Source of the DNA: a virus
Lineage: Duplodnaviria; Caudoviricetes
Length of the DNA stretch: 64,000 nt
Reading direction: 5' to 3' (one strand)
Virus record (IMG/VR): IMGVR_UViG_2630968317_000001
Coordinates: 1-64,000 of that record
Shown here: piece after piece, positions 28,394-51,344 of the stretch
Position numbering within the stretch: the stretch's first letter is position 1
Layout of the letters: every line of letters begins with the position of its first letter
The notes under the pieces: generated by a model
What the model was told of the DNA's origin: nothing
The model's input: only the letters and a program-made list of their open reading frames with translations
The model's database searches: none
Translations under genes and position numbers: made by a program

Positions 28394-28428
28394 AATGTCC
28401 CGATTTTGATCGATCACATGCGACTGTA
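28394..28428 (+). promoter_or_regulatory. Phage motif copy 1: AATGTCCCGATT-N9-CACATGCGACTGTA
   Basis: Identical blocks and spacing at 37782 and 51310; heads the replication operon. Confidence 0.8.
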
Positions 28429-28458
28429 CTTATGAAAGCGAAAAACGGAGGGGATGGC

Positions 28459-28911
28459 GTGAGTGCTATAAGCAATCGTAATTTTTGCGGATATGCAGCC
28501 GAAAACGTAGTTCGGGCCGACTTAGCTAAGAGAAATATCGTAAGTTTAAGTCCGGACATCCCGTGGGCTCATTACGATTTAGTCGCCGACATAAACGGGG
28601 TATTTACTCGAATTCAAGTTAAAACAAACATAGAACACGACGGTTACCGGATGAAAATAGACAATCGTAAATCGAACGGAGCCAGTCGTCCTTACACTAA
28701 AGAAGATTACGAAGTTCTTGCAATTGTCGATTTAGAAAGTGGCGGAGTTGCGTATCTACCTTACGAAGTTTGGAGAGGTAAGTCGCAAATAAATATCATG
28801 CTTCGAGAGGTTTCGAATATGAAGGGGTACGGAAAGGGTAAACAGCCGTTGTATTTCTCTGATTTTAGCGATTTTCCTAACGAAGTAAAGACGGGCGAGG
28901 TGGTAGCGTGA
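28459..28911 (+). CDS. PD-(D/E)XK endonuclease (group I intron-associated family)
   Basis: GYAAE..YDLVAD..RIQVKT..YTKEDYEVLAIV. Confidence 0.8.
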   Translation: MSAISNRNFCGYAAENVVRADLAKRNIVSLSPDIPWAHYDLVADINGVFTRIQVKTNIEHDGYRMKIDNRKSNGASRPYTKEDYEVLAIVDLESGGVAYLPYEVWRGKSQINIMLREVSNMKGYGKGKQPLYFSDFSDFPNEVKTGEVVA

Positions 28912-29324
28912 CAAACGAACACCAACGGCTCGTCTCCGTAGAAACTCAGTCGGAATATAACTTAACGTCCGGAAAGTCTGAAACGCGTATCTTCGTTAAG
29001 ATGTACGTCGATGCCGTCAAGAAAGGCTTGATCGCGGATATCGGACCCGAACGTTGGCAGACGCTTTGCGTACTATCATCGTTTATGAACGCAAACGGCG
29101 AATGCTACCCGACACAGGACCAAATCGGTGAAGCGCTAAATTTAAGCCGAGTCGCGGCAAATAAACGGATACAATCGCTATGTGAATACCGATGGCAGGG
29201 ACGCCCTCTTGTCGTTAAAAAACAAGGGCGCGAAGGAAAGACTCAGCGGTGGGAGAACGCTCGCTATACGATACTTCCGATTAGTCAACTCGCTATATTT
29301 GACGGAGATACAGAGGAATTATAA
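28908..29324 (+). CDS. wHTH replication initiator, N-terminal type (replisome organiser)
   Basis: LSSFMNANGECYPTQDQIGEALNLSRVAANKRIQSL..NARYTI. Confidence 0.75.
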   Translation: MTNEHQRLVSVETQSEYNLTSGKSETRIFVKMYVDAVKKGLIADIGPERWQTLCVLSSFMNANGECYPTQDQIGEALNLSRVAANKRIQSLCEYRWQGRPLVVKKQGREGKTQRWENARYTILPISQLAIFDGDTEEL

Positions 29325-29500
29325 ACGCCGTGTATCGTCTACCCATATACGGCTGACCCGTACACGGCTCGGCTTTACACTAACTAGAACCATCTTTTAA
29401 CTAGAGCCATTAATAACTAGATAAATAATAGCGCTCAATCAAAACCTTTCGCGCAAATAATTACTTTAAAAGATATATCTATCGCGATAAAAGGATATTT
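29325..29500. other. Putative replication origin
   Basis: CCGTGTAT/ATACGGCT/ACACGGCT boxes, TAACTAGA three times, then an AT-rich tract. Confidence 0.55.
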
Positions 29501-29568
29501 GCAAAGAGTGAGCGTAAGCGAACGAATTGCTACGGTTTAAATAACAAACGAAAAGGAGTCCGATAATC

Positions 29569-29934
29569 ATGACGATTAATATTCCGATCTCACCCGATTA
29601 CCACCTTACATCCGACGTCCATAACATCATCGTAAATGAGCGCTATTTCACCGATCCGACCAAAGCGCCGGGCTGGGCGAAGAAACTGGCCGAAAACCCT
29701 GACGCAGACCCAACGCCGGTCGAGCGCTGGCGAGAAGTTTCGTACCACCCTACGATTGATCGCGCCGTCTTGGACGTAATGAATCGGCGGATCAAAACAT
29801 CGGATGCGACGTCTTTAGCCGAGATTGCACAAATGGTACGGGAATTTCGCACGGAATTAGCGGCGGCATTGACGATTGAGGGCGTTATACTGCCGACAAA
29901 TAAAACGGCTAGGAGGCGGTTAAAACGTGGATAA
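29569..29934 (+). CDS. Hypothetical phage protein
   Basis: ORF with AAGGAG RBS. Confidence 0.7.
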   Translation: MTINIPISPDYHLTSDVHNIIVNERYFTDPTKAPGWAKKLAENPDADPTPVERWREVSYHPTIDRAVLDVMNRRIKTSDATSLAEIAQMVREFRTELAAALTIEGVILPTNKTARRRLKRG

Positions 29935-30154
29935 AACGAATGAGCAAGAAATCGCAGAGTTACGTCAGGCAATGGCGGAGCTTATTGCGGAGAATGAGAC
30001 GTATATGCACCACCTCGCAGAAATTCGCGACATGATGCCGTATGAATTCGATGATGAGAATGCGACCGAACATTTACTCGCAATTACGGGTCCTGAGTAC
30101 GTTAAAGATTACGTTAGATGCTTATTAAACCGAATGAAGGAGGCGTTAAAATGA
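29927..30154 (+). CDS. Hypothetical protein
   Basis: AGGAGG RBS, translationally coupled. Confidence 0.65.
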   Translation: MDKTNEQEIAELRQAMAELIAENETYMHHLAEIRDMMPYEFDDENATEHLLAITGPEYVKDYVRCLLNRMKEALK

Positions 30155-30528
30155 AGCCGGAAATCACGAAAGAGCAGGCGGATGCTATAACATTTTTAAG
30201 AGGACTCGGTAGGGACGACGAATATATTTTGAGTCACTTTGGCGAATACGTCAGGCATTGCGCAGTACTGAACGATTTAAGTCGTGTTTCATTAGCGGCT
30301 GCGTTAATCAACGGATATGAAGTCTCAAAGTCGCCGGAGGAGAAGGTACGAGATTACTACGAATCTAATTACGCCAAACACGAAAGGTCGAAGCCATATA
30401 GTGACGACGATTATTATACGACAGGTGTTTTGACCGGCATCAGTCGGACGCTTGATCTCCTCGACATCAAAATCGAAGGTGTAAACGTCAGACGTGAGGA
30501 GGCGGAGGCGAATGGCTTCGGATACTAA
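30151..30528 (+). CDS. Phage protein (DUF1642-like, ALINGYEV)
   Basis: ITKEQADAI..LAAALINGYEV. Confidence 0.6.
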   Translation: MKPEITKEQADAITFLRGLGRDDEYILSHFGEYVRHCAVLNDLSRVSLAAALINGYEVSKSPEEKVRDYYESNYAKHERSKPYSDDDYYTTGVLTGISRTLDLLDIKIEGVNVRREEAEANGFGY

Positions 30529-30880
30529 GCCTATCGAAAAATGGACGGCACGCGACTTCATCGTCTATCTACACGAACGCCACCTCGAAGTCTACGGCAT
30601 TAAATATGTCGCCAATAATCGCGGCATGGAAGCGCGGAACCTAAAGACGATGATCGCCGAGCATGGGGCGGCTGTCGTACGGGACTTCATTGACGCTTGC
30701 TTTGCGGCTAAGAAACCGACGGCTCAGTGGCCTGGCTGCAACTTCGGCTTTATGTTTTCGTATATGCGCGACCGTCACTTGCCGCCGTTACTCGTAAAGC
30801 AAAAGACGGTTAAGCAGTCGGAGGAAGACGATCAAAGGGCGGCTGCACAGTCGCAAATAAACTACGGGGAGTTGTTTTAG
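30512..30880 (+). CDS. Helical protein, possibly the separated C-terminal domain of the initiator
   Basis: Position upstream of the DnaC-like loader; WTARDF..FIDACF. Confidence 0.5.
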   Translation: MASDTKPIEKWTARDFIVYLHERHLEVYGIKYVANNRGMEARNLKTMIAEHGAAVVRDFIDACFAAKKPTAQWPGCNFGFMFSYMRDRHLPPLLVKQKTVKQSEEDDQRAAAQSQINYGELF

Positions 30881-30881
30881 T

Positions 30882-31691
30882 ATGACGAAATATAAGACGG
30901 AGAAACGTAAGGCACGTGTAGGCGAGCGTATTTTGATTACGGATAAACACGTATTTAGCACAAGGTATAAAAATGGAGATGTTCTGAAGGTAGGTAGCGT
31001 CAAACCTATCGGAGTTATTAGCGGGGAGGGTTTTGCGATTTTTCACACAGAGTACGAAGTCATCGTCGGTGAACACACGCCCACCCCGAACCTGTACGAA
31101 ATGCCCTTCGATGAATTAGTGTCGCTTAGTGAGGACGTAATGAAGGCGATTACAATCCGATCATATAAAAACGGCTACGAACAAGGTCGTTTTGATGCGG
31201 AAATTGAGGCGGCGCATGGCACGTATGAGAAGTCCGATCAGCAGAAACGGGATGAGGTCGTTGAGAAGGCGAAGGAGGACGTAGAATATTTGGTCAGACG
31301 ATGCTTCACAGCTAGAACCGAATTTATCGTTAATGCTGAAAAAAGAACTGCCGTCGCAATACGTAAGGCGTTTGGGAACGGTCGCGTAATCTCTAAAGGA
31401 ATCGCCAAATGCGCACCAAACGACTGCTTCAACGCACACATCGGCAAGGCTATTGCGCTAAGACGTGCGCTAGGGTTACCGGTGCCGGCAGAATATCTAA
31501 ACGTGCCGCAGCCGGAAGAAGTACGTGTAGGTGACGTTATTAATTATCGCAATGCTTACATTCTCAAAGTCGTGAATGACGATATCCAACGCACTGCAAA
31601 ACCAGTTTCAACCGTAAGTATTAGCGCACTTCAAGGCAGCGGCGGCGGTTACGTAATTATTGACGATTCGAGAGCGGGTGAGGGCGAATGA
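30882..31691 (+). CDS. Phage protein with SH3/KOW-like repeats
   Basis: RKARVGERILIT; GIAKCAPNDCFNAHIGKAIALRRAL. Confidence 0.65.
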   Translation: MTKYKTEKRKARVGERILITDKHVFSTRYKNGDVLKVGSVKPIGVISGEGFAIFHTEYEVIVGEHTPTPNLYEMPFDELVSLSEDVMKAITIRSYKNGYEQGRFDAEIEAAHGTYEKSDQQKRDEVVEKAKEDVEYLVRRCFTARTEFIVNAEKRTAVAIRKAFGNGRVISKGIAKCAPNDCFNAHIGKAIALRRALGLPVPAEYLNVPQPEEVRVGDVINYRNAYILKVVNDDIQRTAKPVSTVSISALQGSGGGYVIIDDSRAGEGE

Positions 31692-31855
31692 TTTTCGATG
31701 CCAAGACTATCGAGCCGTATTTAGATTATACGGAAGGGACGTTACGGGTAGTTGAGGGTCGAGATTGTAACGTTTATATATTCGTTGAGAAAAGTAGCGG
31801 AAAGGCCCACGTTCTCAATATTGTAGAAAACTAAACCGAAAGGAGGCGGCTAAGA

Positions 31856-32617
31856 ATGACGAATGACTCACGATGCCTACTCGCAAGCAAATGCGCCCAA
31901 GCCGGCGGCGTTAATTGTACGAAACACTGCGAACTATACCTCGGCTTGCACGGCTTAGACGGCGCTGGAGGACGGTCGGGGGCGGCTGGATTGGCGGAGG
32001 ACTACCGCCTAGTGACGCTTAAAAACTCGCCTGCTCGCGCTGATCAGCCCGGAGCTTACAAGGCGGCGGATGCTTATGCGGATACCTTTGACCGCCAATT
32101 TGACGCCGAAGCCGAGCGCATTAAATCGCTATATTTATACAGCGCGAAATCAGGCACAGGCAAGACGACGACGGCTGCGGCTTTGCTTAACGAATATTTG
32201 ACCGCCCATTATATTGGCGCACTAAAACGAGGCATACAACCGCAGCAGAGACCGGCTTATTTTCTCGATGTTAATGCGTGGCAAAACGAATACAACGAGT
32301 TTAATAGACCGCGAGTTCCGGACGCAATCGCAGAGCCGGCAGCCAAACGATATTATGCCGCGCTAGAAGCAGCAAAACGGGCGCCATTCGCAGTGCTGGA
32401 CGATATAGGCGTACGAGAAGCAACGGACGGATTTCGCGGCGATTTACACACGATAATCAACTACCGCGTGACGAATCGTATGCCGACCGTTTATACGTCG
32501 AATATAAAAATGGCGGATCTGCCGGAAGTGTTCGGAGAAGCGCGACTAGCAGACCGTATCGCTGACCAGTGCAAAGAAATCGTCTTCGCGGGCGGATCAA
32601 AAAGGAGGCGGCTGTAA
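31856..32617 (+). CDS. DnaC/IstB-like helicase loader ATPase
   Basis: SGTGKTT, VLDDIG, IINYR..PTVYTSN. Confidence 0.88.
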   Translation: MTNDSRCLLASKCAQAGGVNCTKHCELYLGLHGLDGAGGRSGAAGLAEDYRLVTLKNSPARADQPGAYKAADAYADTFDRQFDAEAERIKSLYLYSAKSGTGKTTTAAALLNEYLTAHYIGALKRGIQPQQRPAYFLDVNAWQNEYNEFNRPRVPDAIAEPAAKRYYAALEAAKRAPFAVLDDIGVREATDGFRGDLHTIINYRVTNRMPTVYTSNIKMADLPEVFGEARLADRIADQCKEIVFAGGSKRRRL

Positions 32618-33268
32618 ATGAGCGGATTATCATTAACGGAAATTCAATACTTACGTGACCTACTCGTTGCGGATTCGTTGGCTAACGGAGAGGGCGCATC
32701 CAAACTCGCTATTTTCGATAAACTAGATGCGCTTGAATTTGCGGACCATACGCCGGCCTATAAAACTGGCGACCTAGTTTCGGTCGAAGGCTATAAAGGA
32801 CGCGTCTTCTACGTTGATTGCGCCCGATACATCGAGGAAACGTCGAAAGAGGCCGTCTTTAACTTTATTGAATACGACCTGTATGACGCGATCAATGGCG
32901 AATGGCTCGAAGCGTTCGAGGCGGACATGGCGTTAGTGGCAAGCGCGCTTGTTGCGGAGGATTACTTGGCGGACTTCAACCTAGAAGACTATCCGCCAGC
33001 AAGAAGTACCGTTTATCTAATAAACTACGAAACGGAGGCGGCTAATATGGCGGCAAAAGAACAGCCGAAGACACCGAGACAGCTCAGCGCGATTGAAGCG
33101 GAAAAGCGTAAGCAGGAACGTAAAGAGGCGGCGGCACAAACCGATAACCTACTCGACATTTACAACTGGAATAAGGCGCAGTATGAAAAGACGGGTGAGG
33201 TAACGTTTAAGGCTAAGATGGACGACACTATGGCGCAATTGGCTGGCGAGGGAGCTGAACGCCGATGA
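32618..33268 (+). CDS. Hypothetical protein (SH3-like plus IDEAL-like tail)
   Basis: YKTGDLVSVEG; DNLLDIYN. Confidence 0.55.
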   Translation: MSGLSLTEIQYLRDLLVADSLANGEGASKLAIFDKLDALEFADHTPAYKTGDLVSVEGYKGRVFYVDCARYIEETSKEAVFNFIEYDLYDAINGEWLEAFEADMALVASALVAEDYLADFNLEDYPPARSTVYLINYETEAANMAAKEQPKTPRQLSAIEAEKRKQERKEAAAQTDNLLDIYNWNKAQYEKTGEVTFKAKMDDTMAQLAGEGAERR

Positions 33269-34656
33269 GTTTCGGAGCTTCTCTACTATCGAAAGTAATC
33301 GAAGCGAACGACCCGTCGGCTTTATTGCGGTACGGCATAACGCGTAAGGATTTTCAAACGGATGGCGAGCGGGCAGCATTCGAATATATCAGCACCTACG
33401 CGGAAAAGAACGGCAACCAAGCACCTACTGCCGAGATGGTAGCGACCGAGGTACCGACATTCCAGCCGGAATTCAGCATCGACGCAACGTTCGAGTACCT
33501 GGCGCAGAAGGCGAAAGAAACGGCTGCGTTAAACGACTTTACCGAAATATTCAACGATAAGTACGGCGCCAACGGAGTCAAAAAAGCCGATTCGGAATTT
33601 ATTCAGCGATTCAACCGAGCACAGGACGGAGGTAATCCACAGGAATTTTTTGATTGGTTGACCGAAGTCGCGGAACGGAGTAAAATAAGAACAAGCGTTC
33701 GTAAATCGGTGGGAACAAACGTCGTGACAGACGTCGATAAGTTCCGAGCCGAATACGAAAAACGCAAGGCTGGCGAGTCTTTCCGCATTTGGAACAGTAA
33801 GTTTCCGGCTCTTAACAAAGCGATCGGGGGCTACGTCAGCTCGAACATGTACGTAGTTTACGGAAAGCCCGGGCGCGGCAAGTCGGCGATCACGCTTGAA
33901 GAATCGATTAATTGCGCAGTTCAAGGCGCTAACGTACTTATCTGGTCGATGGAGATGGGCTGGTTCGAGGTACTCGTTCGAATCTACGTTTCACTTTCCG
34001 GCGATCAAGGCGTTGCTTTAACCGAAATCGATGGCCAGCAAATGGAAGCCGGCTTTGATTCGAGGGACGTCCGCCAAGGCAAGTTATCGGAAGAGTTCGA
34101 GGCTGGCTTTATGGAATTCATCGCGACGTTAAATACGATAATTGACGGAGATATTACGGTTCGAGCCGTAGATGACAAAGACTTCGATTCTCGTTCGCTG
34201 CGTGATCTCAAAGCGGATATTGAGCAAACAAAAGCCGACGTTGTTATGATCGATCCATTCTACTACCTCGACTACGAATCAAACTCGAATAAAACGACAG
34301 GCGGTGCGGCTGCTGATACGTCTAAAAAGATGCGTCGTTTAGCCGGAACAATGGACGTTGTCATTTTCGCAATTACACAAGCCGGAGAAGATGACGCGAC
34401 TGAAGACGAAGCCGGTAATCGCGAGATCAAGTTGCCGAAGCGAAAAGACGTCATGAAAACGTCTGCCCTACTTCAAGACGCTGCTGTATTAATTCCGGTT
34501 GATACGAACGCACGGGAAGGTCGCGGATTGATTGGCGTCAATAAGGGGCGCGATGGTGGCGAAGATGAAGTCGTTGAGATCGTTTATCTACCACAAGTCG
34601 GCCTAATTAAGCAAGTGGCGGCGGGAGAAACGGATTTAGAGGTATTCGGGTTCTAA
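33265..34656 (+). CDS. DnaB-like replicative helicase
   Basis: GKPGRGKS, WSMEM, MIDP, AITQ, KGRDG. Confidence 0.92.
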   Translation: MSFGASLLSKVIEANDPSALLRYGITRKDFQTDGERAAFEYISTYAEKNGNQAPTAEMVATEVPTFQPEFSIDATFEYLAQKAKETAALNDFTEIFNDKYGANGVKKADSEFIQRFNRAQDGGNPQEFFDWLTEVAERSKIRTSVRKSVGTNVVTDVDKFRAEYEKRKAGESFRIWNSKFPALNKAIGGYVSSNMYVVYGKPGRGKSAITLEESINCAVQGANVLIWSMEMGWFEVLVRIYVSLSGDQGVALTEIDGQQMEAGFDSRDVRQGKLSEEFEAGFMEFIATLNTIIDGDITVRAVDDKDFDSRSLRDLKADIEQTKADVVMIDPFYYLDYESNSNKTTGGAAADTSKKMRRLAGTMDVVIFAITQAGEDDATEDEAGNREIKLPKRKDVMKTSALLQDAAVLIPVDTNAREGRGLIGVNKGRDGGEDEVVEIVYLPQVGLIKQVAAGETDLEVFGF

Positions 34657-34768
34657 ATACTGGAATCCTTACCATGAATTACACCGAACAATTCTGAATA
34701 TTTTCGACAAATTACGACTACAATGTCGATGAGAATAGTGTAATATAACGAAAGGGGCTCGTATATAC

Positions 34769-35770
34769 ATGTCGATTCTTACGATTAATGGCGTCCTGAC
34801 AGACGTCGACATACGCGAAGAATTAGAGCGATTCGAATGGGATCGACCTACGTGGCACGCGGACCGTTTAACGGCGGCAAGCCCTTTTCGCGACGATCGG
34901 ACTCCTAGTTTTTACGTTTACTACGAAGACACTCCGACCGCAAAAGCCGGCTATTTCGGAGATAGCGGCACAGGAGAGCGCGGCGGCTTAATTAAACTGC
35001 TTGCGTTTCTGCGTGAAGAAACCGAGGAAGAGACGGCTTATTATCTCGCTGAGACTTATGGTACCGGCGAAGGAGAAGGACGTCTAAAACTCCGTGTTCC
35101 TCGTTTAAAAATCGTTGAGCCTAGACGTCCATTAGCCGAGACTTTACTGGACGGCATCAAGATCGGTCCGAACGCTTACTTAGCCAATCGCGGCATAAGC
35201 GAAGAAGTCCAGCGCAAAGCAGGCGTAGGCACGGTCGGACAAACGGTGGTGATTCCGTGGCGGCTGCCTAATAAGCGCCTGGCAAACGTGAAGTACCGAT
35301 CGACACACAATAAAGCGTTTTGGTACGCAAAAGGCGGATGGCCGATACGTGAATTAATCTACGGCATAGACACCGTTTATGCTAATCACGCCAAAGTAGC
35401 GGTTCTAGCCGAAGCTGAAATCGATGCGCAGTCGTGGCGTACGGCAGGCTTTTGCGGCATTGCGACAGGCGGCAGTAAATTTTCCGACCGAAAGGCGGAC
35501 ATAATTGCGCAGTCACCAATCGAATATTTAATAGTAGTATCTGACAACGACGAAGCCGGTGAGAAATTGCGGAAGGAGGTCGAGCTAAAGATGCGCGGCA
35601 AAGTCAGGCTTGCGCACGGTTATATAACGAAAGGGTACAAAGACGCAAATGAATTATTGATAGCGGAAGGTGAGGACGCTCTTAAGCGAGTTGTTGATCG
35701 TGCGGAGGCGGTAAGTATTAACATAAGGTTCGGGAATATCCGAACTTTTGGTCGGCGGAGGTTATCTTAA
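34769..35770 (+). CDS. DNA primase (TOPRIM)
   Basis: SPFRDDRTPSF, EAEIDA, SDNDEAG, KDANE. Confidence 0.9.
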   Translation: MSILTINGVLTDVDIREELERFEWDRPTWHADRLTAASPFRDDRTPSFYVYYEDTPTAKAGYFGDSGTGERGGLIKLLAFLREETEEETAYYLAETYGTGEGEGRLKLRVPRLKIVEPRRPLAETLLDGIKIGPNAYLANRGISEEVQRKAGVGTVGQTVVIPWRLPNKRLANVKYRSTHNKAFWYAKGGWPIRELIYGIDTVYANHAKVAVLAEAEIDAQSWRTAGFCGIATGGSKFSDRKADIIAQSPIEYLIVVSDNDEAGEKLRKEVELKMRGKVRLAHGYITKGYKDANELLIAEGEDALKRVVDRAEAVSINIRFGNIRTFGRRRLS

Positions 35771-36000
35771 CCCTCCGTGTTGCTACCGGATAAAGGACGC
35801 CAATTATATAAGGCTTCGACCGGGCAGTCGAGGCAGCGCGCTAAGGAATACGCCATTTCAACGTTAGGGATGTTCCTCAGCGAGATATAATCGGAAAGCT
35901 GCGTTTTTGAGATTCCGACCATTTCTGCGAGTTGAATAAGAGTATAACCACGTTTATAACACAGCTCCTTTATCCGGCAAGATACGACCGAATACTGCGA
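35767..36000 (-). CDS. YopS-like HTH regulator; expected start codon reads TCG
   Basis: CRIKELC..KTQLSDY..LDCPVEALY; RBS GGAGGTG and TGgTATAAT upstream. Confidence 0.7.
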   Translation of the reverse strand, partial: SQYSVVSCRIKELCYKRGYTLIQLAEMVGISKTQLSDYISLRNIPNVEMAYSLARCLDCPVEALYNWRPLSGSNTEG

Positions 36001-36077
36001 GATAAACACCTCCGCAAAGCAAAATGACGCGAGCTTTACGAAGGAAATTATACCACATAACCGCGCCGATTCCATCG

Positions 36078-36284
36078 TCATTCGGGCGGATTTGGTAGAA
36101 TGCGGACAACCTTTTCGATGGGTACGTCCAATTCGAGGCAGACGGCTTCTATAGTTGATAAGCTTACGGGCTTGTCCTCGTTAATCTTTGTTACTAGGTT
36201 CCTATGGATGACTTTATCCCTTAGAATTCCAGTTGTTAATCCTCTTTCAGCCAGGTAAGTTCTAAGTGGTTCATAACTAATCAT
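36078..36284 (-). CDS. Cro/C1 HTH_26 regulator divergent from aimR
   Basis: MISYEPLR..KINEDKPVSLSTIEAVCLELDVPIEKVV. Confidence 0.85.
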   Translation of the reverse strand: MISYEPLRTYLAERGLTTGILRDKVIHRNLVTKINEDKPVSLSTIEAVCLELDVPIEKVVRILPNPPE

Positions 36285-36315
36285 AAAAAAAAATCTCCTT
36301 TTTCCTTAAATTCCC

Positions 36316-36331
36316 GCACACAAAAGTGTGC
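36316..36331. promoter_or_regulatory. Palindromic operator GCACAC-AAAA-GTGTGC in the divergent promoter region
   Basis: Perfect 6-4-6 palindrome just upstream of the aimR extended -10 (TGtTATATT). Confidence 0.6.
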
Positions 36332-36377
36332 ATTTATGTTATATTATAAACAGAGAGAAGGCGCAAGTCTATAAGGG

Positions 36378-37553: not shown

Positions 37554-37629
37554 CACTGAGGGGATGAAAATAGATAGCGCGAGCAGTGATAATGTAGTAC
37601 ATGTTAGCGAAATTAAAGTAGGCGGATAA
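37495..37629 (+). CDS. aimP: Arbitrium pre-pro-peptide, 44 aa: MKKILLMGFVLGALVVSLLNTEGMKIDSASSDNVVHVSEIKVGG
   Basis: RBS AAGGGAG, signal peptide, C-terminal EIKVGG; overlaps the aimR end; not in ORF track. Confidence 0.88.
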   Translation: MKKILLMGFVLGALVVSLLNTEGMKIDSASSDNVVHVSEIKVGG

Positions 37630-37634
37630 AAGAT

Positions 37635-44050: not shown

Positions 44051-45096
44051 CGGCAGACAAACGAAAATTAGCGGCTCAATTACTTAGTAACGGCGGTTCT
44101 TCCGAGCCATCATTTGCGCAATCAATCGCGGATGAACTTGTATCGTATCTTAACGAATGGCATTCGCTGCCCGAGACGTGGGATAACCAATTAGACGCAG
44201 ATATTCACCGATGGTATGCGAACGCGCCAAACGTATTTCCGAAGCGTCCGTATTTCTCACCGTCGGCATCAAACGCATGTCCGCGCGAACTATACCACAA
44301 GGCGCTGAACGCGAAAAAGGACGTCGAGGCCAAGCCGCCATATCAAGGACGATGGACGCGTCTAGGAACGGCGATCGGCGACATGATCCAGCGCGATATT
44401 TTGTTCATGGCGAAGCACTTCGGTAAAAAGACCGGACGCGTGTGTCCGTTTGACTTTGAACGCAACGAGGACGGAACACCGGTATTCGAGGACTTTGCTA
44501 AACGCAATCACAAGATCGAGCGCGGTGGGCAGACGTTCTACTTATACGGGACTTGCGACGGCATTCTTCGCTATGTGACGGCAGACGGCGAAATCTTACG
44601 GGTTGGCCTCGAAATCAAGTCGAAGCAAACGACCGCCGCCAAGACTTCGCTGCATTCGATGCGTGAACCGGAAGCAAAACACGTAGCGCAATGCGTGACT
44701 TACGGGCCGATGTATGGTGTCGATTATTACGTTATTTTGTACGTCAACGCGTCCAAGAAATCGTGGGTCTATCCGGAAGGTGAGTTCGAGAAATCGCCGG
44801 ACATCCGAGCGTTCGGCATCGAAATCAAGCCGCATGACATTGACGCGATTCTTGATAGATTCGTAGATATCCGAGATGCGGTCGATGCGGGTACGCCGCC
44901 GGCGCTTGATCTCGGAGCATGGACGTTCAACAACTATAAAACTACGATTGCTAAGTCGTTAACGGATGAGGAACTGCAGATCATTCGCGAGAAAGTAGCG
45001 CAAGTACGTAGGTCGGGCATGTACGCAAGCACGAAGCAGCAGTACGCAGAGGCGCTCGCATTTATCGAGAGAGTACGAGAAGGGGAGGCGGTTTGA
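44047..45096 (+). CDS. Cas4/RecB-like PD-(D/E)XK exonuclease
   Basis: FSPSASNACPRELY, GTCDG, LEIKSK, QCVTY. Confidence 0.8.
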   Translation: MTADKRKLAAQLLSNGGSSEPSFAQSIADELVSYLNEWHSLPETWDNQLDADIHRWYANAPNVFPKRPYFSPSASNACPRELYHKALNAKKDVEAKPPYQGRWTRLGTAIGDMIQRDILFMAKHFGKKTGRVCPFDFERNEDGTPVFEDFAKRNHKIERGGQTFYLYGTCDGILRYVTADGEILRVGLEIKSKQTTAAKTSLHSMREPEAKHVAQCVTYGPMYGVDYYVILYVNASKKSWVYPEGEFEKSPDIRAFGIEIKPHDIDAILDRFVDIRDAVDAGTPPALDLGAWTFNNYKTTIAKSLTDEELQIIREKVAQVRRSGMYASTKQQYAEALAFIERVREGEAV

Positions 45097-45350
45097 TGTC
45101 GTTTAAACTTATCAGAGTTCGGAGCATCGGAAATAAAGAGGTGCCGGAGTGGAAGAAAAGCTTCACGGGTGAATTATGCCGTATCGGAAACGTTCGTTTG
45201 GGGAGACGCCTAGTAGTCGATTTTCCAAACGTAGACATGCATCTTGTCACTACCGAAATAGTCGCGTACAACTCCGACTGGAGGGCGAGTAACAGCTTAA
45301 TCTTGCAAACCCAAAATACAGTTTACGTGTTCTCGAAGGAGGCGGTTTGA
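45093..45350 (+). CDS. Hypothetical protein
   Basis: Coupled ORF; TQNTVYVF. Confidence 0.6.
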   Translation: MMSFKLIRVRSIGNKEVPEWKKSFTGELCRIGNVRLGRRLVVDFPNVDMHLVTTEIVAYNSDWRASNSLILQTQNTVYVFSKEAV

Positions 45351-45547
45351 TGACGGTAGATGACGTTCGGGAACGCGTTGAAAATATCCGACAAGTAGCC
45401 TTCGATGACGAGACGGCTCATGGCATGGAAGACGACTTGTATATCGATGTTTTAGAGGCGATCGCAACCGGCGCAGATAGCCCAGAAAAACTTGCGGCAG
45501 AGGCGCTAAAGACGCAGGAAATCGAATTCTATCGGTGGTATTCGTGA
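45347..45547 (+). CDS. Small acidic helical phage protein
   Basis: DDETAHGMEDDLY..FYRWYS. Confidence 0.65.
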   Translation: MMTVDDVRERVENIRQVAFDDETAHGMEDDLYIDVLEAIATGADSPEKLAAEALKTQEIEFYRWYS

Positions 45548-46080
45548 CCGCCGCCAAGCCTATCCGCATCCTTGCGCTAGACATATCAACGAACCCAGGC
45601 TTCGCAGTCCTCGAAGTTAAGCGCCTAAAGTCAGGACCGCGTATCAATCTCGTTCACGTAACGTCTGTCAGCACGTCAAGCCAATCGCCGGATAGCCATC
45701 GTTACTCTTATATCGAAGCTGCAACGACAATGGTTCTGCACGAATACGGACCGTTTGACGTAGTTGTCCGCGAACATTTCAAGGGCGGTCGAAATAAGAG
45801 ATCGACGCAAACAGTGTTCGGAGCATGGGCGGTCATTGATACGGCGCTTGGTAAATACGGATACAAGGTCGACGAAGAGATACCGCCGACCGCAGTTAAG
45901 CGGGATGTGACTGGAAATGGCAGCGCATCAAAGGACGAAGTAGAGGCGGGTGTAAGGCGCATGCTTGCGTTACCGGATGACTTTACGTTTCGTACGGATG
46001 ATGAATCGGATGCGGTGGCGGTTGGGCTTTCGTATCTAGTTCGTGAAGGCGTAATTGAGAAACCGAAAGGGGCGGAATAG
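45544..46080 (+). CDS. ruvC: RuvC-like Holliday junction resolvase
   Basis: ILALDIS..PGFA, VVRE, VKRDVTGNGSASKDEV, DDESDAVAVG. Confidence 0.88.
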   Translation: MTAAKPIRILALDISTNPGFAVLEVKRLKSGPRINLVHVTSVSTSSQSPDSHRYSYIEAATTMVLHEYGPFDVVVREHFKGGRNKRSTQTVFGAWAVIDTALGKYGYKVDEEIPPTAVKRDVTGNGSASKDEVEAGVRRMLALPDDFTFRTDDESDAVAVGLSYLVREGVIEKPKGAE

Positions 46081-46575
46081 ATGGGCGTGGGTTTAATTAT
46101 TACGTTTGTTGTAACTACGTTAGTTGCCGCAGTTTTAATGCTCGGTATATATGGTTACGTCGCTTCACTCCTCCTCGGAGCAGCAGGAGGAGCAATAGTC
46201 GCACTCATCGCGTGTATACCTATGATTTTTGCGGAAATGCATGCGGTCGATCCAGTTAAAACGGAAGTCTATTCGCTGAAAGATGCGTCCGAAACATCCG
46301 GTAGATTCGTCTTAGGATCGGGAACAGCGCAAGAGGTGCCGTATTTTTACTACGTAGTGGAGAAGGACGGATTTAAGTCGATTGATAAAGCGGTAATTGG
46401 AGCTTCTAAGATTCGCGAAGGGTCATACGAAAAGCCATACGTTCTTACTTATGACGTCCAGTATAAATCGGCTATTGCACGATTCTTCTATGGCAAGAGT
46501 ACGGGGTTAAATACGTACGAATTTTACTTACCGGAAAACACGATTACGACCGACTATAAAATTGATATGGAGTGA
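46081..46575 (+). CDS. Membrane protein
   Basis: Two N-terminal TM segments; GRFVLGSG. Confidence 0.65.
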   Translation: MGVGLIITFVVTTLVAAVLMLGIYGYVASLLLGAAGGAIVALIACIPMIFAEMHAVDPVKTEVYSLKDASETSGRFVLGSGTAQEVPYFYYVVEKDGFKSIDKAVIGASKIREGSYEKPYVLTYDVQYKSAIARFFYGKSTGLNTYEFYLPENTITTDYKIDME

Positions 46576-46844
46576 TTCGGATGGATAAACACGAAGAATA
46601 CGTAATCAAAATTACAGGCGCATTAGGGGAAGTTTTTAACGAAGAATCCGAGCATTTTATTGCGGAATTAAAGAACGTCGACTTAACGGCATTCTTTACG
46701 GCTGCAAACACAGCTCTCGGAGTCATGTATAACCACTATACAGGCGACCATAAGAACGCGGTTGAATTTACGCACCTACTTAACGGGTTGGCGGTTCGGA
46801 AAGCGATCGAGAGTGCAACGAAGGAGGCGGGTGCAAATGGATAA
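46572..46844 (+). CDS. Hypothetical protein
   Basis: Coupled ORF. Confidence 0.6.
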   Translation: MIRMDKHEEYVIKITGALGEVFNEESEHFIAELKNVDLTAFFTAANTALGVMYNHYTGDHKNAVEFTHLLNGLAVRKAIESATKEAGANG

Positions 46845-47202
46845 AGCGATGGCTTACATCGACAAGTTAGCCGCAAAGCTCGGAGTGGCGGCGGAACATG
46901 TTTACGGAGTGCTCGTTAAGCAGGCGGTGGTCGGCGGAGTACTTTCAACGCTTATGATGATAGCCGCCATAATTATCGCGGTGTTGTTAACGAAATCACT
47001 CGCGAAGAAGAGTCGTGAGCACCAAAAACATATTGGAGAATACGACCTCAATCCGTACCAAGTAATTCATTGGTGTACGGTGCTTGCTTTAGCGGTACTC
47101 TCTATAGCTGCGTTAATTAACGGGCCTGATATGGTCGGGAAGATCATCAACCCGGAATACTACGCGATCAAGGAAATCCTCGACACGATCGGAGGTAAAT
47201 GA
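46837..47202 (+). CDS. Phage membrane protein (LAAKLGVAAEHVY..NPEYYAIK family)
   Basis: AAGGAGG RBS; two TM segments. Confidence 0.7.
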   Translation: MDKAMAYIDKLAAKLGVAAEHVYGVLVKQAVVGGVLSTLMMIAAIIIAVLLTKSLAKKSREHQKHIGEYDLNPYQVIHWCTVLALAVLSIAALINGPDMVGKIINPEYYAIKEILDTIGGK

Positions 47203-47408
47203 CGATGGGATACGGAGATATTTTCGTTGCGCCGATCGCTAATTTGCTCGACATGAAGCGGCGGCTCGAATCAGATTTAGGCGACCATGAATACGCATTA
47301 AACCGCCTTGAACTTAAGCGCGTCGAAACGGAAATCGAACGTGACCGGACGGCTGCTAGAATTGAGGAATTAGCTGCAGAAATTGAACGGAGAGGTGGGC
47401 GCGGATGA
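47199..47408 (+). CDS. Coiled-coil hypothetical protein
   Basis: Coupled ORF. Confidence 0.6.
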   Translation: MTMGYGDIFVAPIANLLDMKRRLESDLGDHEYALNRLELKRVETEIERDRTAARIEELAAEIERRGGRG

Positions 47409-47599
47409 AAACGAGAGAAGAGATTCAGTCAGAGATAGCCGGATTACGTAGCATGATTGAAGCCGCGAATAGTGAGATTGAAGCCGCGAATAGTGAGATT
47501 GAAGACTTAGAAAGAGATATTAACTATGCATACGATAAAAAGGCCGAACTTGAAGCCGAGTTAGCCTCGCTAGATCAATCGGAAGGTGAAGACGAATGA
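47405..47599 (+). CDS. Coiled-coil protein with a duplicated heptad
   Basis: IEAANSE twice. Confidence 0.6.
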   Translation: MKTREEIQSEIAGLRSMIEAANSEIEAANSEIEDLERDINYAYDKKAELEAELASLDQSEGEDE

Positions 47600-47760
47600 T
47601 TACGTACGTTGCGCTATTCAGCCTCGCAATCCTCATCATTTTTGTAGGCGGCACAAATGCGAAGACGTTCGAAAAAATCACGACGAAAATCGCCGGCCTC
47701 GTCCTACTAATCATTCCTACTGCGGTGCTATTAGCGTACGCGACCGGAGTTCAGCCGTGA
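47596..47760 (+). CDS. 54-aa two-TM protein (not in ORF track)
   Basis: MITYVALFSLAILIIFVGG..; ATGA and GTGA coupling at both ends. Confidence 0.6.
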   Translation: MITYVALFSLAILIIFVGGTNAKTFEKITTKIAGLVLLIIPTAVLLAYATGVQP

Positions 47761-48113
47761 TCGTATATTTCTACTCGCTGACGGGAAACGTACGGCGGTT
47801 CATCGCTAAGACCGGACTAGGTGGTCATGCGCGTGAAGTCAAGACGGGCGAGGTCGTTGAGGAACCGTTCGTACTCGTAACGCCGACCTACGACTTCGGC
47901 CGGCCGCCTGCAACAGTAAGCGAATGGCTTAAGGATAACGGCGATTGGATGGTCGGCGTGTCGGCGTCGGGCAATCGTAACTGGGGCGACGGCTTTGGCG
48001 CGGCTGCCGACGTTATTGCGACGCTTTATGACGTTCCGGTGGTCGGCAAATTCGAATTAGCAGGGACGGAAGAGGACGTAAGACAATTTACGGAAAGGGT
48101 GAAGGCGCTTTGA
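47757..48113 (+). CDS. nrdI: Ribonucleotide reductase flavodoxin
   Basis: YSLTGNVRRF, TPTYDFG, SGNRNWG, FELAGT. Confidence 0.93.
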   Translation: MIVYFYSLTGNVRRFIAKTGLGGHAREVKTGEVVEEPFVLVTPTYDFGRPPATVSEWLKDNGDWMVGVSASGNRNWGDGFGAAADVIATLYDVPVVGKFELAGTEEDVRQFTERVKAL

Positions 48114-50197
48114 AGCGACACATCGAGTTAAATAACGAAATTATGATTCAAAAAGACGGGCGGTTTCAATTCGAGAAAGACGAAGAGGCCGTCCGTGCTT
48201 ATTTTATAGACTACGTAAATCAAAACACCGTATTTTTCCACGATTTAAAAGAAAAACTCGACTATCTACGCGATAACGATTACTACGAGACGGAATTCTT
48301 AGACGCTTATACATTCGATGAAATCAAGGCGGTCTATAAAACGGCCTATGCCGCCAAGTTCAGATTCCCTTCGTTCATGAGCGCATTCAAATTCTACAAC
48401 GACTACGCGCTGAAGACGAACGACCGTAAAAAGATTCTCGAACGCTACGAGGACCGCATCGCTTGCTGTGCGCTGTACTTCGGAAAAGGAGACGTGGCTA
48501 AGGCGATCGAGTTTGCGCAGTTAATGATCCGCCAAGAGTATCAGCCGGCGACTCCTACGTTTTTGAATGCCGGACGTAAACGCAGAGGCGAGATGGTGTC
48601 ATGTTTTCTGCTCGAAGTAAACGATTCGCTGAACGATATTTCACGTGCAATCGACATTTCGATGCAGCTATCGAAGGTTGGCGGGGGCGTATCGCTTAAC
48701 TTATCTAAACTTCGCGCAAAAGGTGAGGCGATCAAGGAAGTGGAGGGCGTAACGAAAGGCGCGATCGGCGTAATGAAGCTGCTCGATAATGCGTTCCGAT
48801 ATGCAGATCAGATGGGCCAGCGGCAAGGTTCGGGCGCAGCGTATCTAAACGTATTCCACGCGGATATAAACGATTTCTTAGATACGAAAAAAATCTCGGC
48901 AGATGAAGACGTCCGCGTCAAAACGCTATCCATCGGCGTCGTGGTGCCCGATAAATTCATCGAACTAGCGCGAGAAGATCGTCCCGCCTACGTTTTCTAT
49001 CCACATACGGTCTATAAGGCATATGGAACGCATCTAGACGAAATGGACATCGGCGCAATGTACGATGAACTCGTAAATAATCCGGCGGTACGTAAAGAAC
49101 GGATTAACCCGCGCCAGCTACTCGAAAAGATGGCCGTGCTGCGCTCCGAGTCAGGATATCCGTACATGATGTTTCAAGACAACGTTAACCGAGAACATGC
49201 GTTGAATCATATCAGCCGCGTTAAATTCTCGAATTTGTGTTCGGAGGTGCTTCAGGCGTCAACCGTCTCGGAATACACCGACTATGGAGAACCGGATGAT
49301 ATCGGCCTAGACATTTCGTGTAATCTCGGCTCTCTTAATATTGCGAATGTGATGGCGGGTGGCTCGATCGAAAACGCCGTCAAATTGGCCGTTGATGCGC
49401 TTACGGTCGTCTCTGAATCTACGAATATTAAAAACGCGCCAGCTGTCGCAAAGGCTAACCGTGAGATGCGTTCTATCGGACTCGGCGCGATGAATCTGCA
49501 TGGCTATCTAGCGCAGAATGGCATCGCATATGAATCGGAAGAAGCGCGTGACTTTGCTAACGTGTTTTTCGCCACAGTTAACTACTGGACGTTGGTACGC
49601 TCGAATGAATTGGCGCAGGAAACGGGATCAACATTTGAAGGCTACGAGGGTTCTACGTATGCGAGCGGAGAGTATTTCGAGAAGTATTTCGAAGGTGATT
49701 ATCGACCAAAAACGGATAAAGTGCGGGCGCTATTTAAAGACATCGTGATTCCTACGCCCCTCGAATGGGAAGTCTTACGCGATAACGTAAACATGCACGG
49801 ACTCTACCACGCCTATAGACTTGCGATTGCGCCTAACGGATCTATTTCGTATGTGCAGTCGGCGACGGCTTCGGTCATGCCAATTATGGAGCGTATTGAA
49901 GAACGGACTTACGGAAATTCGAAGACGTACTATCCAATGCCTGGATTATCGCCGCAAAACTGGTTCTTTTACAAGGAAGCGTACGACATGGATATGTTCA
50001 AGGTCGTGGATATGATCGCAACAATTCAGCAGCACGTCGACCAAGGCATCTCATTTACGCTGTTTTTAAAAGATACGATGACGACGCGTGATCTGAATCG
50101 GATTGACCTGTACGCGCACCACAAAGGAATCAAGACGCTTTATTATGCGCGCACTAAAGATACGACGCAGGAGGGGTGTTTATCATGTGCCGTTTAG
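48110..50197 (+). CDS. nrdE: Class Ib ribonucleotide reductase alpha subunit
   Basis: PATPTFLNAG, SCFLL, SNLCSE, C-terminal CLSC. Confidence 0.97.
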   Translation: MKRHIELNNEIMIQKDGRFQFEKDEEAVRAYFIDYVNQNTVFFHDLKEKLDYLRDNDYYETEFLDAYTFDEIKAVYKTAYAAKFRFPSFMSAFKFYNDYALKTNDRKKILERYEDRIACCALYFGKGDVAKAIEFAQLMIRQEYQPATPTFLNAGRKRRGEMVSCFLLEVNDSLNDISRAIDISMQLSKVGGGVSLNLSKLRAKGEAIKEVEGVTKGAIGVMKLLDNAFRYADQMGQRQGSGAAYLNVFHADINDFLDTKKISADEDVRVKTLSIGVVVPDKFIELAREDRPAYVFYPHTVYKAYGTHLDEMDIGAMYDELVNNPAVRKERINPRQLLEKMAVLRSESGYPYMMFQDNVNREHALNHISRVKFSNLCSEVLQASTVSEYTDYGEPDDIGLDISCNLGSLNIANVMAGGSIENAVKLAVDALTVVSESTNIKNAPAVAKANREMRSIGLGAMNLHGYLAQNGIAYESEEARDFANVFFATVNYWTLVRSNELAQETGSTFEGYEGSTYASGEYFEKYFEGDYRPKTDKVRALFKDIVIPTPLEWEVLRDNVNMHGLYHAYRLAIAPNGSISYVQSATASVMPIMERIEERTYGNSKTYYPMPGLSPQNWFFYKEAYDMDMFKVVDMIATIQQHVDQGISFTLFLKDTMTTRDLNRIDLYAHHKGIKTLYYARTKDTTQEGCLSCAV

Positions 50198-50340
50198 ATC
50201 GAAATACGACGGAGTACTCAAACAAAGATAAAGCGGTTAGACTTTCGCATAACACAAAGGCTTATGCGGACGGAGAGAAGTCGTTTAGACTATCCCATAA
50301 TACAAAGACACTTGTAAATCAGGGGAGGACGAATACTTGA
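50185..50340 (+). CDS. 51-aa micro-ORF bridging nrdE and nrdF, RLSHNTK twice
   Basis: GGAGGGG RBS; stop overlaps the nrdF TTG. Confidence 0.4.
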
Positions 50341-51311
50341 CGACATTCACAGCGGCCAATTGGTCGCAATCAGACGATAATTTCACGGCCATGTTCTACG
50401 ATCAGAACGTCAAGCAATTTTGGCTGCCGGAGGAGATTTCGCTAAATGGCGACCTCCTTGCGTGGCACGAACTGAAGCCAGCCGAACGCGATACGTATAT
50501 GAAAGTGCTCGCCGGCCTGACGTTATTAGATACGGAGCAAGGCAACACCGGCATGCCCGCGATTATGGCGCACGTAGACGGACACCAACGCAAGGCCGTC
50601 CTTAATTTCATGGCGATGATGGAGAACGCAGTCCATGCGAAATCCTATTCGAATATCTTTCTAACGCTGGCGCCTTCGGAAACCATTACGGCCGTCTTCG
50701 AATGGGTTAAAGAAAACCGTTATTTGCAGCGCAAAGCGAAGCTGATCACCGACCTTTATCGCGATATCAAGGCAGGCGACGATATTTCGTTATACAAAGC
50801 GATGGTGGCTTCGGTATACCTCGAAAGTTTCCTATTCTACAGCGGCTTTTATTATCCGTTGTATTTCTACGGGCAGGGACGCATGATGCAGAGCGGCGAG
50901 ATAATTAACTTAATTATTCGCGATGAAGCGATACACGGCGTCTACGTCGGGTTGCTTGCGCAGGAAATTTATAACCGGCAGACGGCCGTCGTTAAGGCGG
51001 GCTTGCACGAATGGGCAGTCGGTTTATTAACGGATCTATACGAAAACGAGGTCGCATATACGGACGATGTGTATGGTGCGGTCGGTTTGGCGCATGATGT
51101 TAAGTCTTTCGTCCGATACAACGCGAATAAGGCACTCATGAACCTCGGCTTTGCGGCGCATTTTCCGGATGAGCCGGTCAATCCGATTGTGATAAACGGG
51201 TTGAGTACGAAGACGAAGGCACATGACTTCTTCTCAATGCAAGGAAACGGATATAAAAAGGCAACGGTCGAGGCACTTAAAGACGAAGATTTTTATTTTC
51301 CTGCCGATTAA
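50337..51311 (+). CDS. nrdF: Class Ib ribonucleotide reductase beta subunit
   Basis: [32 protein letters not shown]. Confidence 0.97.
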
Positions 51312-51344
51312 TGTCCCGATTTCCGCCGTCCACATGCGACTGTA
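51310..51344 (+). promoter_or_regulatory. Phage motif copy 3
   Basis: AATGTCCCGATT-TCCGCCGTC-CACATGCGACTGTA, followed by TGAAAGCGAAAA as in copy 1. Confidence 0.8.

Follow-up and report, generated by a model that had tools for sequence, protein, structure and literature searches.

A threefold bipartite repeat and a divergent sigma-like protein in a temperate Bacillus prophage: evidence for a lineage-specific promoter class

The question raised by this locus is which protein reads a short bipartite sequence that recurs three times, with identical blocks, in a 64,000-nucleotide (nt) stretch of viral DNA (positions 1 to 64,000 of the IMG/VR record IMGVR_UViG_2630968317_000001, referred to here as the window). 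The motif, AATGTCCCGATT-N9-CACATGCGACTGTA, stands ahead of a replication module, of a gene encoding a sigma-like protein (37846-38376, plus strand, termed sigma1), and of a unit for nucleotide metabolism. An initial annotation, made from the letters of the DNA, had proposed that the repeat is a -35/-10 promoter recognized by sigma1, the copy before its own gene creating a positive feedback loop, or else that it is an operator for the arbitrium receptor AimR or for one of the helix-turn-helix (HTH) proteins encoded nearby. As we show here, the repeat is real, non-random and conserved, and it very probably represents a class of promoter peculiar to this lineage of phages. The protein that reads it is likely to be sigma1, an extracytoplasmic function (ECF)-like phage sigma factor that would have three cognate promoters, one of them autoregulatory.

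The repeat, its placement and its conservation in close relatives

A pattern search that allowed up to three mismatches returned three matches in the window, all on the plus strand and all without a mismatch, compared with none in 100 dinucleotide-preserving shuffles, and a scan of the whole 88,161-base provirus record returned the same three copies and no others. Neither half of the motif occurs alone as a further exact copy in the window, where near-matches with two or three mismatches are at chance level. The 9-nt spacers of the copies are mutually unrelated (TTGATCGAT, CATACGGAC and TCCGCCGTC), while the likeness among the copies runs past the 3' end of the motif into TA(T/C)(A/T)(A/T)(G/A)TG(A/T)AAG(C/G)GA. 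Each copy is co-oriented with the genes that follow it and has a Shine-Dalgarno sequence 27-35 nt downstream. The threefold motif with identical blocks and a free spacer, lying on the plus strand near ribosome-binding sites (RBS), thus stands as the initial annotation had described it. The copies, their proposed promoter elements and the gene for the proposed reader are as follows.

28394-28428, plus strand: motif copy 1, followed by GGAGGGG and a GTG start codon at 28459; it heads the replication module (28459-35770)
28396-28401 and 28419-28424, plus strand: proposed -35 element TGTCCC and -10 region TGCGAC of copy 1, with a predicted transcription start at about 28431-28434
37782-37816, plus strand: motif copy 2, directly 5' of sigma1, followed by an RBS at 37831-37838 (GGGAGGAG) and a TTG start codon at 37846
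37784-37789 and 37807-37812, plus strand: proposed TGTCCC and TGCGAC elements of copy 2, with a predicted transcription start at about 37819-37822
37846-38376, plus strand: sigma1, 176 amino acids, PHROGs family phrog_24888, no Pfam family; proposed reader of the motif
51310-51344, plus strand: motif copy 3, followed by AAGGAG and an ATG start codon at 51376, with a predicted transcription start at about 51347-51350

The claim that all the copies lie at the heads of operons needs correction. Copy 3 overlaps the nrdF stop codon (51309-51311), is not preceded by a terminator, and thus has the position of an internal promoter rather than that of a free-standing operon head. Copy 1 marks the extreme left edge of a prophage resembling Bacillus phage vB_BauS_KLEB27-1 (KLEB27-1), the DNA upstream, as far as the first motif base, being unlike that of KLEB27-1 or of the relative G001, and a terminator-like hairpin (28326-28353) lies upstream of it. 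No sigmaA-consensus promoter was found in the interval 27700-28600, nor within about 400 nt of copies 1 and 3. The genes after copy 1 encode, in order, a PD-(D/E)XK protein, an HTH_36 DNA-binding protein, a replication initiator, a DnaC-like loader, DnaB and a primase; those after sigma1 encode a DNA polymerase, exonucleases, RuvC and NrdIEF, and lead to copy 3. The unit 3' of copy 3, which shows synteny with KLEB27-1, comprises small open reading frames (ORFs), dut, thyX, a SprT-like gene, a kinase gene and finally the gene for a second sigma-like protein, sigma2.

In close relatives the motif and sigma1 are found together. KLEB27-1 carries three copies of the motif at the same syntenic places with at most one mismatch. 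The motif stands some 63 nt before sigma1 in all nine loci or records in which sigma1 is at least 81% identical to that of the window (L001, L006 and L010-L016), compared with none of the 28 loci whose sigma1 homologue is below 65% identity, although in one of these, L017, a variant exists that is not upstream of its sigma1. When IMG/VR was scanned with an exact degenerate pattern absorbing the variants seen, 22 matches were returned in only nine contigs (3, 3, 3, 2, 3, 3, 2, 1 and 2 per contig). The presence of sigma1 was verified in eight of these; the ninth is a metagenome fragment, and another contig of the same metagenome (L043) carries a sigma1 C-terminus.

Variation of the motif and of its candidate readers

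The comparison was carried to more distant relatives, each record being searched with the element found upstream of its own sigma1 homologue. In 12 of the 13 records examined a bipartite element of the same layout precedes the homologue, consisting of an A/T-rich stretch, TGT(C/T)NC, 25 nt and TATA. The block on the -35 side is similar across the groups of relatives, whereas that on the -10 side is group-specific.

Group A (G000, G001 and KLEB27-1): -10-side block CACATGCGACTG; sigma1 82-100% identical to that of the window
G003 and G004: -10-side block CCTACCCGTTA; sigma1 57% identical
G005 and G008: -10-side block CTACGTGTTA; sigma1 51-53% identical
G009: -10-side block GCGTCCCCTTC; sigma1 37% identical
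L041 and G010: -10-side block CTGTATCCTACAT; sigma1 35% identical

At the syntenic sites before the replication and nucleotide-metabolism genes the element of the group is found again. G000, G001, KLEB27-1, G003, G004 and G009 have three copies and G005, G008 and L041 two, while in G007, as in the fragments G010 and L024, the copy before sigma1 is the only one; a third threshold-level match in G005 (24/36, minus strand, 11183) was taken as chance. The variation of the -10-side block appears to track sigma1. Other genes of the window whose products might read the motif, and which were compared in the same records, are these.

55974-56432, plus strand: sigma2, PHROGs family phrog_3512 ('sigma factor', 1.5e-22), Pfam Sigma70_r4 at 6.7e-6 (26.0 bits against a cutoff of 24.1)
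36378-37553, plus strand: aimR, arbitrium receptor, Pfam AimR (PF22871) with E 1.1e-19 (71 bits against a cutoff of 26.7)
35767-36081, minus strand: HTHa, small Cro/CI-type HTH gene divergent from aimR, candidate lysogeny repressor
36078-36284, minus strand: HTHb, small Cro/CI-type HTH gene divergent from aimR, candidate lysogeny repressor

The HTHa/HTHb pair (35767-36284) matched Pfam HTH_3 at 1.7e-11 and HTH_26 at 1.7e-4.

Two relatives are telling cases. G006 carries a motif like that of group A, AATGTCCCGTTT-N10-CATATCCGACTGTA (..CCGACTGTA), which stands directly before its sigma2 operon. The identity of G006 to group A is 63-71% for sigma1, 45-46% for sigma2 and 32-36% for HTHa, and a helix of sigma1, EQRTLLS(I/V)GYWL(E/D)RY, is common to group A and G006 but differs in the other groups (for example EQECYQAIGRTLENL). 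Phage 268TH007 (L076) has the same synteny, but the gene annotated as a sigma factor at the corresponding position shows no relationship to sigma1 (BLASTP E 0.94; hhalign probability 0.1), and hmmsearch of the six-frame ORFs of this phage returned no sigma1 homologue. In 268TH007 all three sites carry another class of motif, GTCCA-N13-ATACGCATC, and at two of them (9040-9140 and 33140-33250) a second related element lies 60 nt behind the first; a 268TH007-like ACGCAGTTATTTATGAG is also found behind the A-like motif of G006 (6929-7060). Within sigma1, conservation is higher in the C-terminal domain (58-69%) than in the N-terminal one (50-57%), which fits the better conservation of the -35 block. 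The motif and the sigma1 gene therefore vary together across related phages, as the initial annotation would have it, the proximal block being the part that is specific to each group.

The family extends beyond these records. Genes of the sigma1 family that are 29-35% identical and annotated as hypothetical occur in the Paenibacillus larvae phages Tripp, C7Cdelta, Ley, Ash, Halcyone, Unity, Heath and Scottie and in the Sporosarcina phage Lietuvens. In Tripp the homologue follows the primase gene, there is no aimR, and a 'SigK-like' sigma2 is located near the terminase gene.

The position of the motif relative to translation signals helps to place the transcription start. In five copies (copy 3 of G003 and of G004 and copy 1 of G004, G008 and G009) a Shine-Dalgarno sequence follows the octamer TATA(A)GTG after only 0-4 nt, so that transcription should start in or before the octamer, and the group-specific block should therefore be the -10 region. 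The predicted geometry is TGTCCC-N17-TGCGAC-N6-purine(+1), a normal spacing for the sigma-70 family, with the start placed inside TATAAGTG; once the start is placed by the RBS constraint, the distance between the two elements fits the roughly 16-18 nt expected for a sigma-70 group IV promoter. The promoter would thus comprise an A/T-rich upstream stretch, the -35 element TGTCCC, a 17-nt spacer of which 9 nt are free, the -10 region TGCGAC(TG) and a purine start in TATAAGTG. The predicted start would overlap the 3' end of the motif, close to the position a few nt after GACTGTA given in the initial annotation. For about 18 nt after the motif, approximately from +1 to +18, a further sequence, (T)AAGTG(A/T)A(A/G)GGCGAAA, is kept across groups with wholly different -10 blocks and is present in the copies of all the relatives. 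It may be an initial-transcribed or leader signal acting, for example, in pausing, antitermination or stability.

28429-28446, 37817-37834 and 51345-51361, plus strand: conserved stretch following motif copies 1, 2 and 3, respectively

The predicted fold of sigma1 also resembles that of a sigma factor. The AlphaFold (AF2) model, built with 66 homologues, has a predicted local distance difference test score (pLDDT) of 90 and displays two helical domains joined by a low-confidence linker (residues 89-111). About 45 of the 50 top Foldseek rows were sigma factors, including the ECF proteins sigmaH, sigmaL, sigmaE, AlgU and BldN as well as sigma28, sigmaS, sigmaB and sigmaA; the best E value was only 0.11 because the two domains are oriented differently. 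In a second look (VIA) 47 of 50 rows were sigma factors, with Z scores of up to 7.4, and in an unbiased VIA search the N-terminal domain matched sigma region 2 in 1sig (Z 7.4, root mean square deviation 2.3 Å over 70 residues) and in 3ugo (Z 6.9). Among the nearest named clusters in the ESM Atlas, Sigma70_r2 was found in 20 of 30 (score 0.96). Structure prediction is thus consistent with the sigma-like character proposed for the 37846-38376 product, the matches being almost only sigma factors at modest scores. The KLEB27-1 homologue is annotated as a sigma factor in GenBank, while PHROGs lists the family as of unknown function; the family amounts to approximately 177 sequence clusters of 'hypothetical' phage proteins, and the literature searched contains no biochemistry on it. 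Judged from the model, sigma1 probably works like an ECF-type sigma and is probably a very divergent sigma factor.

It should be emphasized, however, that several observations weigh against the assignment of the motif to sigma1. At the level of sequence no Pfam family reached threshold, either for sigma1 or for the 23 close relatives compared; 66 diverse members of the family yielded three weak Sigma70_r2 matches (best E 0.013) and one to Sigma70_ECF (3.4e-4), and sequence-profile searches of the PDB with sigma1 found no sigma factor. The fold scores lie below the confidence lines of the tools (Foldseek E above 0.001; Z below 8 for an all-helical protein). With respect to the motif, G006 is the exception among the 13 records in having no copy before its sigma1. 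In G007 (approximately 25470-25520) and G008 (approximately 26700-26750) the third, or dut, site carries an element of the 268TH007 type without the 268TH007 sigma, and the pairing of one sigma with one motif is thus not perfectly clean. Paenibacillus phage Tripp, whose sigma1 is some 30% identical, displayed no multi-copy motif at the threshold used (a single 23/36 match on the opposite strand was taken as chance). As shared descent confounds comparisons of this kind, the co-variation constitutes support, not proof.

It could be argued that the motif is read by sigma2 and that sigma1 is simply one of its targets. Sigma2 is the main rival reader, being the only one of the two with a threshold Pfam sigma match and a PHROGs name of 'sigma factor'; it occurs in every near-complete relative, its identity falls across the groups roughly as the motif changes, which again tells against sigma1, and it lies within the unit behind copy 3, so that it too would be autoregulated. 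The two proteins are separated only by G006, 268TH007 and G007, which limits the case for sigma1, but in all three the motif parts company with sigma2. The sigma2 of G006, a phage with an A-like motif, is less similar to that of group A than is the sigma2 of group B (the G003 type; 48-49%), which has a quite different motif. In 268TH007 sigma2 is 78-80% identical to that of G003 and G004, but the motif class and its spacing differ at all sites, matching the swapped sigma gene. Similarly, the sigma2 of G007 is 88-91% identical to those of G005 and G008, yet the element before the G007 sigma1 is different. Furthermore, no motif copy stands before the terminase gene or the structural genes, at which a late factor would be expected to act. 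Sigma2 is thus unlikely to be the reader.

The remaining candidates were compared with the motif by means of a tblastn table and pairwise identities. AimR of the window shares 27% identity with its counterparts in G001 and KLEB27-1, which have the same motif, as against 46-47% in G004, G008 and L024, which have others, and it is absent in G005, G007 and G009. The HTH_36 protein is 89% identical in KLEB27-1 (same motif) as against 92% in G005 and 86% in G003 and G004 (other motifs), and neither G009 nor L041 has it. For HTHb the identity is 42% in G001 and KLEB27-1 as against 76-77% in G008 and L024, while HTHa is 100% identical between G008 and L024, whose elements differ, and shows no similarity between G005 and G008, which share a -10 block. 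These identities do not match the motif classes, and all four proteins were therefore rejected as readers of the variable block. The alternative offered by the initial annotation, an operator for AimR or an HTH protein, consequently falls, as none of the four regulators co-varies with the motif, and such a reading is largely excluded. The same failure to co-vary bears on a variant of it in which the blocks are the site of a phage regulator (AimR, HTH_36 or a Cro/CI-type HTH protein) at a host sigmaA promoter with TATAAG as its -10 element. TATAAG agrees with the sigmaA -10 consensus at five of six positions and varies less than any other part of the element across all groups, and several HTH genes lie near motif copies. 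The conserved blocks, however, are without dyad symmetry on direct reading of the sequence, with a -10 at TATAAG transcription would begin, at five sites, within or downstream of the Shine-Dalgarno sequence, and there is no conserved sigmaA -35 element at 17 nt, the position in question being free spacer; we regard this variant as improbable. The reader might instead be encoded by the host, as an alternative (ECF) sigma of the Bacillus pumilus group, with the phage tapping into the host stress response. TGT..C followed some 19 nt later by CGAC loosely recalls Bacillus ECF promoters, but the AAC core of ECF -35 elements is absent from the motif, the proximal block differs among phages of closely related hosts and tracks the phage gene, and in the IMG/VR scan, which covered viral contigs, the nine contigs with the motif include eight with a verified sigma1. 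A host sigma as the reader is thus highly improbable. Of the original proposal of a -35/-10 promoter for the 37846-38376 product, synteny, co-variation and the sigma-like fold all speak for sigma1, while the transcription start and the activation are predictions.

Prophage context and a possible regulatory circuit

The initial annotation treated the whole window as one prophage, which does not hold. The terminase, portal, tail and lysis genes in the first 28.2 kb gave no tblastn match in any KLEB27-1-like phage, and positions 1 to 28.3 kb are a separate phage-like element, which may be PBSX-like. It encodes an Xpf-like protein with sigma region 4, and the window accordingly holds three sigma-like genes derived from two elements, the others being sigma1 and sigma2. 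A type I toxin-antitoxin RNA was also detected within the structural region of the first element.

1413-1931, first element: Xpf-like protein with sigma region 4 (Sigma70_r4_2, 4e-14)
11434-11695, minus strand: BsrG, type I toxin-antitoxin RNA family (Rfam, 157 bits against a gathering score of 55, E 4e-38)

The motif belongs to the other phage, which begins at approximately 28.3 kb and continues beyond the window, with its terminase gene at 63972 and structural genes at 64-84 kb of the record, and which is collinear with KLEB27-1. Sigma2 is presumed to be its late-gene factor; a by-eye look upstream of terL defined no late promoter for it.

Between the HTH genes and sigma1 lies an arbitrium module, and sigma1 is followed by a conserved structured element.

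37486-37629, plus strand: candidate aimP, 47 amino acids, assigned by position and sequence shape (a hydrophobic N-terminus)
37636-37649: terminator-like hairpin after candidate aimP
37725-37770: conserved element about 45 nt 5' of motif copy 2
38377-38514, plus strand: conserved structured non-coding element, from the sigma1 stop codon to the next ORF, with a core long-range helix at about 38379-38480

The element at 37725-37770, ATGCTAATATATGG(T/A)CATG(G/A)AAGAAA, is shared by group A, G003 and 268TH007, whose AimR and sigma genes differ greatly, and contains an extended -10-like TGCTAATAT. It could be a sigmaA promoter for the initial expression of sigma1, and may be a site of AimR action. 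A scan of 28-66 kb with a LexA-box consensus gave no exact match; one-mismatch sites are located at 33688, 35741, 43864 and 49230, none of them beside the sigma1 promoter.

The structured element behind sigma1 is detectable at the DNA level even in 268TH007, with its unrelated sigma gene. In an alignment of 11 sequences its 16 consensus pairs are 94% paired and five of them show compensatory changes. The covariation score is 0.247 compared with 0.146 in shuffles, none of 500 reaching 0.247, and slid controls score far lower; the minimum free energy is -33.3 kcal/mol (z -2.3). The interior holds an invariant CAAGCGAACA-N5-(A/G)CGAAC, and no Rfam family matched the element.

An aimR-aimP module is present between the HTH genes and the sigma locus in the window, G003, G004, G006, G008, L024, KLEB27-1 and 268TH007. 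As it lies just upstream, the sigma gene sits where aimX is situated in known arbitrium systems. No small aimX gene or RNA was found downstream of the candidate aimP in the window, where the next gene is that of the 176-amino-acid sigma1; the same applies to KLEB27-1, G003, G004, G006, G008, L024 and 268TH007, in the last of which the next gene encodes the unrelated sigma. G005, G007 and G009 contain no aimR, and in these phages sigma1 is directly divergent from HTH repressor-like genes, the place that cro occupies in phage lambda.

Some evidence on transcription comes from RNA-library contigs of a prophage approximately 90% alike, derived from three runs of one study, which carry neither strand nor 5' ends. 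The k-mer depth was 1,800-10,600 over the two minus-strand HTH genes (35637-36303) and 1,460-5,770 over a short stretch at the sigma1 3' end (38305-38971), compared with about 25 over the replication genes, a pattern that fits a lysogen. Four such libraries compared with 28300-48299 gave no transcription starts and nothing informative at the motif copies. The contigs end with sequencing-adapter letters at 38400 and 38404, and a minus-strand sigmaA-like promoter is located at 38444-38416. The promoter-like site and the adapter-ended contigs could reflect an antisense RNA against sigma1 that is expressed in the lysogen.

A circuit can be proposed from the gene order. Sigma1 would be held off by three things, the HTH repressor-like genes divergent from it, the aimR-aimP module and the terminator, with the repressor and the arbitrium system gating its first burst. 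Once made, sigma1 would displace the host sigmaA on core RNA polymerase and fire three promoters, those of the replication module, of its own gene, providing positive feedback, and of the nucleotide-metabolism unit; sigma2, encoded at the end of that unit, would then drive the late genes. More broadly, and as a tentative proposal that we hold to be possible rather than probable, the whole lytic programme of these temperate Bacillus siphoviruses of about 65 kb may hang on a self-activating sigma factor in the 'cro/aimX position'. Arbitrium would have been inserted in front of it, making the sigma the output of peptide communication in the 'RP-only' architecture; the sigma cassette and its three promoters would be swapped together (groups A, B, C and so on, and 268TH007); and the post-motif AAGTG[A/T]A[A/G]GGCGAAA and the structured RNA may add antitermination or control at the RNA level.

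Relation to known sigma factors and arbitrium systems

The closest known analogue is SigN (ZpdN) of the Bacillus subtilis plasmid pBS32 (PMC6751061). SigN is encoded on a mobile element, is weakly ECF-like, and activates itself at PsigN3, which locks in its active state; the operons under its control serve replication and nucleotide synthesis and lie on pBS32 itself, and a repressor, LexA, holds it off at rest (PMC6751061). It has 17 mapped and two predicted promoters, with the consensus ATTTACGTTT-N~11-CCAGATATAAAT (PMC6751061, Table 2). The logic proposed for sigma1 is the same, that of an element-borne sigma factor with a promoter before its own gene and a DNA-metabolism regulon. They differ in the number of promoters, three for sigma1 against the 17 plus two given for SigN in that table, and in upstream control, which in the account cited is exerted by LexA for SigN, whereas the neighbours of sigma1 are Cro/CI-type HTH genes and aimR-aimP. 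The motif of the window and those of all the groups also differ in both blocks from the published SigN consensus (TTTACG.. / ..GATATAA). When sigma1 was used as a tblastn query against 72,556 plasmid records, whose inclusion of pBS32 is unconfirmed, a single chance-level match was obtained, to a plasmid of Brucella (E 10), and no Bacillus plasmid was hit.

Autoregulated ECF (group IV) sigma factors generally have a two-domain sigma2-sigma4 build of about 170-200 amino acids, a -10 element that contains CG, and a copy of their promoter before their own gene. Sigma1 would resemble them in its predicted two-domain build, in its proposed bipartite promoter with a CG-containing -10 region and in the copy before its own gene. 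Unlike them, it has no threshold Pfam match to Sigma70_r2, Sigma70_r4 or Sigma70_ECF, and no adjacent anti-sigma gene was recognised; its proposed promoter has a -35 element, TGTC(C/G)C, that is not of the AAC type, and sigma1 is carried by a phage whose DNA-metabolism genes would form its regulon. In phage SPO1 a phage sigma, gp28, replaces the host sigma for the middle genes and a second factor, gp33/34, then serves the late genes. The location of sigma2 at the end of a sigma1-type unit recalls this cascade, as does the motif directly before the sigma2 operon in G006. SPO1, however, is virulent, has no lysogeny switch and has many promoters in each class, whereas the phages described here are temperate and have three proposed promoters, one of which would be autoregulatory.

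The locus resembles the aimR-aimP-aimX order of arbitrium systems in that aimR is followed by a short ORF resembling a secreted peptide, a terminator and then a gene expected to promote lysis. Unlike in those modules, the downstream gene encodes a 176-amino-acid sigma-like protein rather than a small AimX peptide or RNA. A 2025 preprint (10.1101/2025.11.23.689978) classifies arbitrium architectures and leaves a generic 'RP' class with no known output. It also describes an aimC/aimL pair that lies downstream of aimP, whereas the HTH genes of the window are upstream of aimR (10.1101/2025.11.23.689978). The word 'sigma' is absent from the main text of this preprint. Likewise, the literature searched contained no report linking an arbitrium module to a sigma-factor output or describing the motif, and the publications that name these phages are genome announcements only.

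If the reading in favour of sigma1 is true, it would provide a function and a DNA target for the approximately 177 clusters of 'hypothetical' proteins in Bacillus, Paenibacillus larvae and Sporosarcina phages, and would account for the joint activation of three long operons that lack sigmaA promoters. It would also supply a concrete output for arbitrium systems that lack aimX, aimC and aimL, an architecture left unexplained in the preprint (10.1101/2025.11.23.689978). Among isolated phages, KLEB27-1 and the B. subtilis phages 268TH002 and 268TH007 share this design and have tractable hosts, and orthogonal sigma/promoter pairs with at least five specificities are possible parts for Bacillus synthetic biology. 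A sigma factor carried on a mobile element, with an autoregulatory promoter and a DNA-metabolism regulon, is a known kind of system; what is new here is the sigma1 family, its motif, their cassette-like co-evolution and the proposed coupling to arbitrium.

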